Below, in pieces: positions 1,046 to 52,721 of a stretch of 64,000 nt of DNA. A model generated the notes under the pieces. That model was not told the origin of the DNA, ran no database searches, and saw nothing but the letters and a program-made list of their open reading frames with translations. The stretch lies in NCBI RefSeq assembly GCF_006345805.1, contig NC_043011.1:15264464-15328463 (forward strand), written 5' to 3'. How positions within the stretch are numbered: the first letter of the stretch is position 1; every line of letters begins with the position of its first letter. The DNA comes from Octopus sinensis. Its lineage: Eukaryota. The position numbers and the translations under genes were made by a program.

Positions 1046-1441
1046 TTTCGCGGTTGCATACAAGTTATGGATCCAACCAACATAGGGATGGTTCTAGGTT
1101 GACGCTTACATGAAAGAAGAACACGTGTGTAACTTTAAATTTCTTTACAAGTGTTTCAGCATCAATTTTATTTTAGTGATGAAATAGTTCGATCATTACG
1201 ATTACATCATGAAGAGTATCCACTATCATCAGGTGATTTTAAAAGTGGGTGTGAAGAGAAAATTCAAATCGACGCGCTTTGCCAAGCATTAGCAAAGCGA
1301 GTCGATTTGAATATTCTTTTCACACCCACTTTTAATATCACCTGATGATAGTGGATACTCTTCATGATGTAATCGTAATGATCGAACTATTTCATCACTA
1401 AAACAAAACTGCTGCTGAAACAGCTTTTGTGGAATTTTAAA
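1046..1441. mobile_element. foldback element with degenerate HHR-like cores
   Basis: Inverted arms ~1152-1282 and 1292-1422 with a 9-nt loop; CTGATGA (1342-1348)...GAAACA in each arm, pointing outward; between (TA)n and (TTG)n/(TTC)n. Confidence 0.6.
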
Positions 1442-1449
1442 CTCTACTT

Positions 1450-1633
1450 TTGTTGTTGTTGTTGTTGTTGTTGTTGTTCTTCTTCTTCTTCTTCTTCTTC
1501 TTCTTCTTCTTCTTCTTTTTCTCCTTTTTCTTCTTCTTCTTCTTTTTTCTTCTTCTTCTACTACTACTTCTTCTTCTCCTCCTCCTCCTCCTCCTCCTCT
1601 TCCTTCTTCTTCTTCTTCTTCTTCTTCTTCTTC
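1450..1633. repeat. compound (TTG)n/(TTC)n/(CTC)n microsatellite
   Basis: Direct inspection. Confidence 0.95.
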
Positions 1634-4039
1634 CATATATATATATGTGTGTGTGTGTGTGTGTGTGTTTGTACGAGTGTACACATTTAACTTTCTAGAT
1701 ATTCTAACTTCACTGTTGCATATTTTCTAATCGATTTTACCTGTACTTATTGCTATCCGTATTAGATACATCGGTATAATATAAAGCAAAAGTAATCTGA
1801 GACAAATAACTAGGAGTGGTCAGTGACATGCACTTGAACATCATAGACAAATACAGACTTATCAGATACAATACGGTATGAATTCTTGATTTTCTAAAAC
1901 TAGATATGTGAGACACTAGAAGATATATAAAAATTGCCAAATGACAAATATGATTAGCTCTACTTGAGAAGGCGAGATAATCTTAAATTTGAGGAATATG
2001 CTGGTGTGCTATTAAGGAAAAGGAGAAGCAAAGGGCTCAATAGTCGTCATTAGCACGACAGTTATCCAGTTTGATATATATGTAATTGTCTTTGCTATAT
2101 AAATACATGTCACTAGACAGTCTGTGATATTTCTCTTAGCTCATCAATGTTTAAATTATGCAAATCGACTCGGCCGTAAATGTGATCTACTCAGTTTTGT
2201 ACACGTAGAGCATGTAGAACGAGTATAGTGTTATTGGACGCTCAGGAAAGGAAAGAAAGAAGGAGGATTTAACGTTTCGAGTATGTATATATGTATATAT
2301 ATATCTATATCTATCTATCTATCTATCTATCTATCTATCTATCTATCTATCTATCTATCTATCTATCTATCTATCTATCTATCTATCTATCTATCTATCT
2401 ATCTATATATATGTTTATGTCTTTGTTGGGTTACTATTTTATACACACACCCACATACACACACACTCACACACACGCACACACACACGCACAAAAAAAC
2501 ATACGCACACGTGCATGCACATTCGCATACACACACACACGCATATCTATCTATGTGGTAACATATTTTTGATCGGATATATACCAAACACCAACAAGTT
2601 TCTGTGAATTCAAGTGCTAGATACTAGATGAGACGTATTGTGATGTGATTTTGGTTCGCATTGATGGCTCACCGTACGTTATACTGTTCTCATTAATGCA
2701 CAAAGAACGATCTGCATATAAGATCACTATTATCAGATCAAAGAGGGAAGGCCGGTCAGAAATAGGCGCCAAATCCTCTGTATATACACGTTACAAACGT
2801 ATAGATTGACAAAAATGATATTGATAACATCAAAGAGAACATGCTTCTTCTTCTTCTTTCACCTTTGGCGAATATAGCTTTAAATAAGAGGAATTGATGT
2901 CATGAGACAGTATTCTGTCCAACCTTTCGTATTTCGACCAATTTCCCGCCATGGTTAACAAAGTCAATGCTACTTAATACATACATTAAAGTCTATAAAA
3001 TTTCAAATAATTTTCCTTAAATGTCTATGCAATGAAAAGATAATTACTTCATCGCTGTTCACTCTACTTCGAAAGCATAGTGATTACATGCATGTGTGTG
3101 TGTGAAAACGCATGTGTCTGTAAGAAATCTTAAATATTTGAGTAACCAAAACCATGTTCATCATCTGTAGGAGCCATAGTTGCGCCGCAGCATTGTATGT
3201 CTTTCAAAAGGAAAACAGCATGTCGGCTCTCGTCTCAATACTGCAAAAATTGTTTCGTCATAGAATTGGCTTTATATTGGTTTTTATATTTTTCTATGTG
3301 TACATCCAGTGCTCGCTTAATTGCCGGTCAACTGATGATCTAGCAGATTATCAAATCAAAATAATCCCTTACAACACTCTGACTCCAATAGGCTTCATGC
3401 GATTCTTAGACGTGTAGTCTATTTTTAGCTACAATAGCGACAATATGAATTTCTTCCAGCTTCTTAGTGTGTTAAAATATTTGAGAAAAATTATATTAAT
3501 TTGTCTTACTTGTTAAAATTCTATTTATTTATTTGTGCAACTGAAGATGGCACTACATTCAAATTGATATAATGATTGCATAGTTCAATTAAATGGAGCC
3601 GCTTGAAATGGTCGTTCTGCATCACTACTTGATATCTTGTTAATTATATTGATTTTATTCACCTTCGAACTGTGCGGATGATACCAGACTGAGTTGGTGC
3701 TTCAACTTAAGTACCTAATTCAACTGAATCTCAATTATTTCTATCTATCTATCCATCTGTCTGTCAGTCTATCTATCTACACACACACACACACATACAC
3801 ACACATATGCATATATAAGCAATAATAAATCTCTGAACGAGGTATAAACAGTAGCTGCACGACGGTGTGAAGTATATTTGCCACTTAAATGTGGCTAACC
3901 ACTAAGGGTTACAAGATTTCACAGGCACAGGGAAGAATATAGATGTTGCACGGACAACTCCGAACCAAGACAGAAATGTCAGGTTTGACCGAACACCGGT
4001 CACGTGGGGAGAGAAGAGAGAGAGGTAGAGGCAGAGGAA

Positions 4040-4965
4040 TAGATGTATCCTCGTTAATTATTGTGATGTCACTCTCTGTGTCCAATTGTAGTTTCGTATT
4101 CACATTATTTATTTTTATAGAGACAGATTTCTTTTTTGTATCTCGCTTTTCATTTGTATTGATAATACTTTTTTTCTCGAATATGTTCGTTCCACCATTT
4201 CTGTTTCACCCAACAATGTGAATTCTTGTGTCCAATATTCCCACATCCAAAACATTTTAGATTCTTAAAAGAACAGTTTCTTTTGAAATGTATTTCTCTA
4301 TATCCATAACATGGTTTGGGTCTTGACTGTTGTTTTTCTTTTTGCGTATCTGTTGCCGATCGACACGTATGTATATTTGAATATTCTTTTTCAATTTTTT
4401 CTGCGTCTTGTTGTAGATTTATAATTCCTTGGTATTCTTCAGCCACTATTTGTAGGGTTAGTTTTGAATCTTGTTCAAGCTTTGTCAATATTCGAGCCCT
4501 TAACTCTACATCTTTATTTGCTGTTAATCCTTGTACGAAGATTAAACATTTAAACATATATGGGTTTACTTAATTCATCGAGTTTAAATTGTTCACATTC
4601 TCTATTTACAATTTCGGCGTACGTGGCGAAATCTTCCATTTCTTTTTTTTCCGAATCCAAACACTCCCAGCGAATATTAAATAGTGAACTTCTTTCACTG
4701 AATATTTTAGATAATTGTTCCCTCGGAACAAAATTTCGATGGGTTTCTCGGCAAGATGTAATTACAAAACTTTTCATGTTCTGCTGGTGATAATTTCCTT
4801 AAAAGAAGACGTACCATCTTTTCGTCTGTTCAGCTTTTACACTCTTCCTTGAAGATTCCTTCATACATTCTGAAGTATGCAGTAAATGTAATCCATTCTT
4901 CTGGATTACACGTAAAATCTTCAATTCAATTAGCAGCCACATCTACCGAAAACGAACCTGAAGTG
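4040..4965 (-). mobile_element. Ty3/Gypsy gag-protease remnant
   Basis: Frameshifted gag-like ORFs with zinc knuckle CFGCGNIGHKNSHC, followed by protease-like KLQLDTESDITII. Confidence 0.8.
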
Positions 4966-5282
4966 TCTTTTGACGGCAACAATAATAATCCCAACAACTG
5001 TTGATTTTGTTGTTGCTGTTGTAGTTGCTGTTTTTCCTGTCCTTGCTGTTTCTGTTATTCTTGTTATAGCTGCTGTAGTTGCCGTTGCAACCATTGCTGT
5101 TGCTTCTCTTTTTGTTGTTGTTGTAGTTGCCGTTGCAAATGAACCACAGAAGCTAATATGTCTCTCATGTCACCACTCTGGTGTCTCGTCGACACTATTT
5201 TGTCCTTCTGTGAACACACACTGTATATGCCACTTTATAACGTGCAGTTGTAACAAGGTTATAACAATACAAGTATCAATCA

Positions 5283-51451: not shown

Positions 51452-51705
51452 TGAAGACGCGTGGCTTAGTGGTGAGGGTTTTCGGCTTACGATCGTAACG
51501 TCGTGAGTTCAATTCCCGGCTACGGGTTGTGTCCTTAAGTAAAGACACTTTATTTCACGTTACTAAAGTCACTCAGCTGGTAAAAATGAGTAGAACCTGT
51601 ATTTGAAAGGGCCAGCGTTGTCACACTCAGTGTCATGCTGAATCTCTCTGAGGACTATGTTGAGGGATACACGTGTCTGTGGAGTGCTCAACCACATAAA
51701 CGCTA
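51452..51705 (+). mobile_element. tRNA-derived CORE-like SINE (family C)
   Basis: A-box tggcttagtgg, B-box gagttcaattcc, gtgtccttaagtaaagacacttta. Confidence 0.75.
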
Positions 51706-51947
51706 ATTTCACAATCATCATCATCATAATCATCATCATCATCATCATCTATGTTCGCCATATTTTTCTCGTTGTTTACATATTTAACTCGTTTGTTTAC
51801 GTATTTCGTGTTGTTTGAAACGTTATATATATATATATATTATATATATATATATATATATGTAGGTCCCGGGTTGATTCGGGGTTAACCACAGTAAATA
51901 AGGTACTCAATACATAGCAGAGTAAAATTAATTTATTATATAGAAGG

Positions 51948-51998
51948 AGCTTCTACAGGACTAGAACTGTTTCATTCAAGAGAAATCATCAGGAAGCT
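51948..51998 (-). ncRNA. type I hammerhead ribozyme, intact core
   Basis: Reverse complement AGCTTC-CTGATGA-tTTC-tctt-GAAt-GAA-ACAG-ttctagtc-CTGT-A-GAAGCT; perfect 6-bp stem I, 4-bp stem III, GUA triplet. Confidence 0.85.
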
Positions 51999-52253
51999 AG
52001 TTAACAAGAATTGTATTGGCATTTATACATTTAGGCAGGTTTAAAGGGGTGGTGGTGGGGGACTTTTTGGGGTTAGGCATTCTTCTATATATTTTTTTAT
52101 TCTTTTATTTATTCTTTTATCTAATTTACCACTGACTCCTTGACCACTCCCCCAAGTATGATATTTTTGCGCATGCCTAACCCCAAAAAGTCCCCCACCC
52201 CACCCCTTTAAACCTGCCTAAATGTATAAATGCCAATACAATTCTTGTTAACT

Positions 52254-52304
52254 AGTTTCCTGATGATTTCTCTTGAATGAAACAGTTCTAGTCCTGTAGA
52301 AGCT
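52254..52304 (+). ncRNA. type I hammerhead ribozyme
   Basis: Same motif, with one G-U pair in stem I. Confidence 0.85.
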
Positions 52305-52721
52305 CCTTCTATATAATAAATATATATATATATATATATATATTATATATATATATCTATATATATATATATATATAGGTAAACAGTAAAAATAATTACA
52401 GACATGGACAAGAACATGAAACACCACAGAGACGACACAAGAACCACAGGACGGGACATTCGAAGCCCTCAGTCATCAGTCAAGAACCAGATCATCTTAG
52501 CAATTTCGGCTGATTAATCTTGAGATTGCTCCGATATGGCCAGCCAGCCAAGGGAAATCTAAGCCAAGCGCATTAGATCCCCTGGAAGAAAGCTTCGAAT
52601 GTATACAACGCGAGGACGGAAAACGAACGAAGTACATAAAGAAAAATACAGAATACGTGACACCAATAAGAATACAAAAACGTAAAAACAATAACGGTAA
52701 AAATAATATATATATATAACT

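Follow-up and report, generated by a model that had tools for sequence, protein, structure and literature searches.

Inverted copies of the pseudo-long terminal repeat (pLTR) belong to the described anatomy of Penelope-like retroelements. Arkhipova et al. (2013, PMC3846280) reported such copies with an optional tail of 31 base pairs (bp) and target duplications of 8-10 bp, found the head-to-head arrangement to be the most frequent one and proposed that it arises by antisense self-priming. An inverted, 5'-truncated copy with a tail at one end, together with targeting of (TA)n, is described in the legend to Fig. 2 of Craig et al. (2021, PMC8557442), who name the origin of inverted pLTRs as an open question that the first in vitro study (PMC11167929) does not answer; in PMC8969392, inverted pLTRs figure as a feature used in curation. 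The type I hammerhead ribozyme (HHR) motifs of Penelope elements have a short or palindromic stem III, and the minimal forms combine an unstable stem III with low activity (PMC4209133). In vitro, one Penelope protein nicks and extends both target strands and starts reverse transcription at two adjacent internal RNA sites, which define the tail; a dimer is predicted (PMC11167929). In L1 twin priming (Ostertag and Kazazian, 2001, as given in PMC9148063), both target overhangs prime complementary DNA (cDNA), which results in a head-to-head inversion. Here we analyze a stretch of 64,000 nucleotides (nt) from Octopus sinensis (NC_043011.1, positions 15,264,464 to 15,328,463; the window in what follows), AT-rich animal DNA with many microsatellites and short repeats, in which five foldbacks, denoted A to E, very probably are head-to-head pairs of short HHR-motif repeats of the Penelope pLTR or retrozyme type.

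Head-to-head foldbacks and their hammerhead motifs

Self-BLAST and pairwise alignments identify A-D as real inverted pairs (Table 1), and a survey of all local inverted repeats added E, which had escaped the original prediction. All five are divergent. The prediction had claimed that in each of A-D the HHR of the left arm is on the minus strand and that of the right arm on the plus strand, and that the two arms reach different distances in the 3' direction. The alignments and the motif strands agree with the first claim, the polarity of A being likely rather than certain, and the second is borne out by an additional 3' segment that is present in one arm only: 88 nt in the left arm of A, about 90 nt in the left arm of B, 71 nt in the right arm of C and 69 nt in the left arm of D. 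The outer ends of the arms differ by 57-90 nt in all five foldbacks and the inner ends are variable, so that a miniature inverted-repeat transposable element (MITE) or another DNA transposon with terminal inverted repeats was rejected as an identification. A (TA)n tract adjoins seven of the eight outer ends of A-D (for example, 1002-1044 at the left end of A), the exception being the right end of A, which is followed by a TTG/TTC tract (1450-1633). Taken alone, divergence in four of four cases is weak support for a rule (two-sided p=0.125; p=0.0625 for five of five).

The arms of A share a common start point across a 3-nt loop (1286-1288) and are identical at 139 of 152 aligned positions; the corresponding numbers are 78 of 83 in C and 148 of 149 in D, and the arms of E differ by 8 substitutions over 84 positions. 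In B, five cores are spread over units of about 554 nt; the outer end of the right arm, which has a 15-nt deletion of its own, corresponds to unit position 19631 and overlaps the inner end of the left arm (19655) by 25 nt. The 3 nt between the arms of B match the sequence 12 nt downstream and could be either a templated insertion or part of a 12-nt duplication. The spacer of D is G-poor on the plus strand, like the sense strand, and by composition probably belongs to the right arm. The polarity of E follows from its homology to the region downstream of the HHR in the single-orientation elements F and G.

Table 1. Foldbacks and related single-orientation copies in the window
Feature	Position	Strand	Characteristics
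A left arm	1046-1285	-	Decayed HHR core 1232; extension 1046-1133, this arm only
A right arm	1289-1441	+	Decayed HHR core 1342
B left arm	19541-21321	-	3.2 tandem units, retrozyme-like; cores 19876, 20434, 20985
B junction insert	21322-21324		
B right arm	21325-22235	+	1.65 units; cores 21448, 22005
C left arm	39410-39492	-	HHR core 39476 (CCGACGA); short 3' end
C spacer	39493-39512		20 nt
C right arm	39513-39666	+	Core 39529; extension 39596-39666
D left arm	51862-52080	-	Core 51992; extension 51862-51930
D spacer	52081-52172		92 nt
D right arm	52173-52321	+	Core 52260; short 3' end merging with (TA)n
E left arm	52701-52835	-	No HHR; longer at 5' side, no 3' extension
E right arm	52831-52980	+	Carries 3' extension; 5-nt junction microhomology 52831-52835
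F	350-1026	+	Single orientation; core 663, long stem II; 165-nt direct terminal repeats, pLTR-like partial tandem
G	55518-56251	+	Single orientation, related to F and E; core 55648; 126-nt direct repeats
Solo C-family copy	24445-24538	+	Decayed; ends at the short 3' site of the C left arm

Seven other foldbacks (7705-8169, 13541-13938, 41328-41787, 46279-46420, 47125-47346, 51126-51193 and 59926-60276) were left out of the count because their arms lack an HHR or because they center on (TA)n. Each family is represented by one or two loci in the 64 kb, and single-orientation copies (F, G, 24245-24447, 24445-24538 and 52371-52700) are about as frequent as foldbacks.

A first, strict descriptor missed all four foldbacks of the original prediction, and the scores given here come from a relaxed descriptor, under which B, C and D each have type I HHR motifs in both arms, minus-strand on the left and plus-strand on the right. 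These motifs and that of F score 22-30 (27 in B; 22 and 29 in the left and right arms of C; 30 and 28 in those of D). In eight locally shuffled windows, a single match reached 24 and none reached 28. Neither descriptor recovered the HHR of A. Its two cores, with a long stem II and a decayed palindromic stem III, emerged from a looser pattern that was devised after inspection of A, and because the motif is decayed and was recovered solely in this post hoc manner, the head-to-head polarity of A is graded as likely only; the motif resembles the class found in the outside loci described below. An Rfam search of the window produced no HHR at the gathering score, only 5S rRNA, and none among the 150 of 377 weak matches listed, which are of microRNA type on simple repeats and hairpins. 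None of eight motifs is more stable than its shuffled versions (z from -1.44 to +1.67), and for B, the minimum-energy fold differs from the hammerhead fold. Compared with Penelope hammerheads, the cores are atypical, with CCGACGA in C and a stem II without the closing G-C pair in B, C and D; in B, the closing pair is restored by the majority allele at 19845 in run X18.

Polarity of hammerhead loci in other assemblies

A scan of metagenome assemblies with a common hammerhead pattern yielded at least 118 loci, from 3 of 64 parts, of which 65 failed the stem filter and 53 passed; removal of four duplicates left 49, a count that does not include 20 viral loci. An inverted arm of the locus' own family is present in 13 of the 49, in every case upstream of the sense copy and never downstream (binomial p=0.00024). 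With limits on flank length, the proportions are 11 of 44 upstream and 0 of 31 downstream (p=0.002), and when the comparison was repeated without the palindromic core, 11 and 13 loci with an upstream arm were obtained and none with a downstream arm (L035 was gained and L055 lost). Four loci had been labeled 'both' at first since their matches merged with the palindrome of the hammerhead itself; all four start upstream. At least one outside locus is animal DNA, given the frames of a family 3 G protein-coupled receptor in L067. Exact patterns of B and C had no match in the metagenome and viral contigs. The outside loci derive from different organisms and families, and long foldbacks are lost in short-read assemblies; they support a polarity rule for the class and are not a count for this genome. 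They also bear on the target. The original prediction assumed a cut, self-complementary (TA)n, which turns out to be dispensable because the same polarity is seen in the 13 outside loci, for which the flanks printed are not (TA)n.

Two details of individual outside loci can be added. In L085 (73-335), the 3' end of the inverted arm lies where cleavage by the hammerhead is predicted (+32 to +34), which would suit the use of a cleaved RNA end; this is a single case. A reverse transcriptase (RT) next to L030 was considered as a Penelope open reading frame (ORF) and ruled out, its motifs being what we take to be those of an LTR-retrotransposon-type fragment.

Candidate routes to a head-to-head pair

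We favor, with a probability of roughly 0.55, a two-primer mechanism in which one cDNA is made from each cut target strand and the two are then joined. A Penelope-like enzyme, with RT and endonuclease supplied in trans, would cut both strands of the target; one cDNA would start from each cut, each primer using a different start site on the template; and the two 5'-truncated cDNAs would be connected at their inner ends by end-joining. For elements made of tandem units, both primers could have used the same multimeric RNA. Priming on two strands is essentially the twin priming of L1 (PMC9148063).

Several observations bear on this proposal. At unit positions 19686 and 19927, the right arm of B has none of the four alleles that copying of the neighboring left units would give, and thus is not an in-register copy of them. 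The geometry of the arms is mixed: the extension is on the 5'-shorter arm in E, L037, L050, L051, L055 and L099 and on the 5'-longer arm in B, L008, L017 and L085, the outer ends are equal in L003, L014 and L040, and A is symmetric (C, D, L025 and L049 are outside this classification). This mixture counts for two primers since a hairpin copy of a single template predicts one class only. The short end appears to be specific to the family: it is also where the solo C-family copy terminates, and in run X18, 16 contigs show loose, TA-rich ends immediately before 19651, close to the short end of B. Furthermore, the arms are nearly contiguous modulo the unit, with the 25-nt overlap of B, offsets within about 17 nt in L008, L037, L051 and L055, and within about 30-50 nt in L025, L099, L049 and L003; these offsets were read by eye from diverged alignments in a comparison that leaves out A, C, D, E, L017 and L050. 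For tandem-unit elements, such contiguity is no more than suggestive of twin-priming geometry on one RNA. The microhomology in E and the templated-looking insert in B would fit end-joining, and would also fit a fold-back. A 10-bp direct repeat encloses the whole foldback of L008, with a maximum of 7 bp in 72 mismatched control pairs; 7-bp duplications in L051 and L055 were dismissed as chance because 6 of the 72 controls reach 7 bp. Target duplications in the window are unreadable as (TA)n hides them. As a side observation, one contig of run X18 (19541-20098) has the short 3' end, at about 19633, fused to a copy with a truncation at about 20068, a shorter partial tandem.

The published explanation for palindromes at head-to-head junctions (PMC3846280) is that the antisense RNA folds on itself at a palindrome and is extended by RT, and that the resulting hairpin then integrates. 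The near-perfect hairpin center of A is in line with this route, and the expected extension on the 5'-shorter arm is seen in the six foldbacks listed above; it is at odds with the four cases in which the 5'-longer arm is extended, and with the alleles of B, which do not mirror each other. Junction palindromes hardly discriminate here because the 3' ends of two cDNAs presumably also anneal only at inverted microhomologies, and in vitro insertion is primed by nicked target DNA, the template running from the pLTR into the ORF (PMC11167929). On balance, we consider antisense self-priming unlikely as the general source. The hairpin could instead form at the level of DNA: a single target-primed cDNA would fold at a microhomology and be copied back in the direction of the target, and an internal TA-rich site would then serve for the connection to the other target end. 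The nested arms of L008, L017 and L085 and the position of the short ends of B and D at internal TA-rich motifs are what such a snap-back would produce. It cannot generate an arm with family sequence that is absent from the template arm, as is the case in the six foldbacks with an extended 5'-shorter arm, and B again fails with 0 of 4 alleles; this route seems improbable for the set as a whole. Antisense self-priming and snap-back may, however, each account for a subset of the foldbacks.

Chance pairing of two copies, by independent insertion or by later rearrangement at fragile (TA)n tracts, has precedents in the window, namely different families in one (TA)n (F beside A, and 24245-24447 beside 24445-24538) and (TA)n-centered palindromes (46279-46420, 47125-47346 and 51126-51193). 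It is nevertheless very unlikely given that foldback junctions are without (TA)n, that both arms belong to one family in spite of the scarcity of each family in the window, and that the outside polarity is one-sided (11/44 against 0/31, p=0.002). Least credible is an assembly artefact derived from fold-back chimeric long reads. Single-base deletions in the B units do resemble consensus errors, and no junction-spanning read was seen in a comparison of reads with one B unit only (0 reads matched this unit in X21, 12 in X22 and 0 in X23). Against this, the arms differ by 13 of 152, 5 of 83 and 8 of 84 substitutions in A, C and E, respectively, their ends are unequal, the 15-nt deletion of B is private to the right arm, and the same layout recurs in 13 unrelated loci of other assemblies.

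The two-primer mechanism faces difficulties as well. A mixture of the two hairpin routes would also allow all classes of arm geometry, and A (3-nt loop), C (20-nt spacer) and L085 (15-nt gap) have the near-symmetric centers expected of a snap-back. Contiguity is not seen in L014, L040 and L085, has a chance probability of 0.18 for B alone, and may reflect a hotspot of truncation because the solo copies L053 (-75) and L079 (-44) are truncated in the same zone. Only one of nine outside foldbacks (L008) has a target duplication above chance. No strand-changing joint of the B family was found among the listed contigs of run X18, in which the pieces of up to 81-88 nt are too short to show one. Finally, a Pfam search with 94 of the 134 window frames of at least 75 amino acids gave no match to RT or GIY-YIG, so that the link between the window copies and the Penelope machinery is drawn from structure and the literature.

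The Penelope-type reading put forward in the original prediction and the divergent polarity are supported, and priming on two strands is the explanation that the data appear to favor, but the layout is no new fingerprint of a mechanism because it had already been described, along with Penelope insertions that carry an inverted pLTR, in PMC3846280 and PMC8557442. We tentatively raise a further, doubtful possibility, that the foldbacks and the one-sided tail are a single phenomenon, a programmed form of twin priming in which each subunit of a dimeric Penelope enzyme would take one cut strand and one of the two start sites of reverse transcription. Where the units are tandem, a single multimeric RNA would serve both, and the downstream cDNA would stop where the upstream one began. 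If true, head-to-head pLTRs would be explained in this way and no longer by antisense self-priming, and tandem copies of the D family would be expected to join the end of the 69-nt extension to the start of the 92-nt spacer.

Other repeats and comparison with known systems

Several repeats in the vicinity of the foldbacks share features with them. The 24245-24538 region consists of a minus-strand HHR-motif element (CCGACGA core at 24374) and the plus-strand decayed C-family copy, back to back, and thus is a divergent pair of two different families across a short TA run. Another minus-strand element (52371-52700), which has a weak hammerhead-like core at 52479 and a short stretch in common with 24245-24447, is located between D and E, and these three form a chain with (TA)n between the members. 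In G, an ATG and a GT donor-like site (55715-55730) follow the hammerhead, and the left arm of E is truncated at the matching donor-like site (52831-52835). A hammerhead-like motif with a C3-to-U core near 41470 was noticed by eye between inverted arms resembling short interspersed elements (SINEs) at 41402-41713; the scans had missed it. The three (TA)n-centered palindromes are a different class of foldbacks, centered on a TA run, of which 46279-46420 resembles two SINE-like ends face to face and 51126-51193 is a perfect 68-bp palindrome. MITE-like elements with terminal inverted repeats are found at 7705-8169 and 43218-43744 (two copies, 81% identical) and at 13541-13938. Fragments of a Mariner/Mos1-type transposase (HTH_48 and Transposase_1) are encoded at 57734-58593 on the plus strand, and a single 5S rRNA gene (53116-53234, minus strand, 102.8 bits in Rfam) lies near the D-E cluster.

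Foldbacks of this kind can be misannotated as MITEs or as microRNA hairpins; in particular, C is mir-9261-like below the Rfam threshold. Being short and free of ORFs, they are compact records of single insertion events, and in any long-read genome the mirroring of alleles, the identity of the extension-bearing arm and contiguity modulo the unit can separate two-strand priming from self-priming.

Among the described systems, B is akin to the non-LTR retrozymes (PMC7761336; bioRxiv 10.64898/2026.07.22.740005) in that its units follow one another in tandem, are non-coding, without an ORF, and contain one type I hammerhead each. It is present in very high copy, with 7,685 contigs of run X18 matching one unit. 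Unlike the retrozymes, the B unit is longer than 150-300 bp (PMC7761336) and the array contains an internal inversion; in the two retrozyme papers, the word 'inverted' occurs only in reference titles. A, C, D and E differ from retrozymes in not being tandem here.

The resemblance to L1 twin priming lies in the near-contiguity of the arms on a multimeric template in B and several outside loci. In L1 inversions, the two arms contain different parts of the RNA and hence are not known to form foldbacks. The arms in the window, by contrast, share their sequence; the second start seems characteristic of the family and not random, and there is no poly(A) tail. No paper that applies twin priming to Penelope elements was found in a literature search that did not reach older subscription papers. 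The in vitro system of the PAc Poseidon element (PMC11167929) is similar with respect to AT-rich targets, nicking and extension of both strands and two internal starts of reverse transcription that define the tail; it involves another species and family, and its text as available mentions no foldback products and gives no account of inverted pLTRs.

In structure, the foldbacks resemble the endonuclease-containing (EN+) Penelope-like elements, i.e. Penelope/Poseidon, Neptune and Naiad, for which the layout is ordinary. A head-to-head inverted 5' copy, an extension at one end and microsatellite or (TA)n targets are common to these elements and the foldbacks of the window, and partial tandems and type I hammerhead motifs to these elements and several of the window elements (PMC3846280; PMC8557442; PMC4209133). 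In the window, we observe the HHR motif in B, C, D and F, the head-to-head arrangement and the one-sided extension in five of five foldbacks, and (TA)n at seven of eight ends. The window copies differ from the EN+ elements in the lack of an ORF, in consisting of terminal segments only and in extensions of 57-90 nt as opposed to the published 30-40 bp, and from the Naiads in particular, which are described as having no canonical hammerheads.

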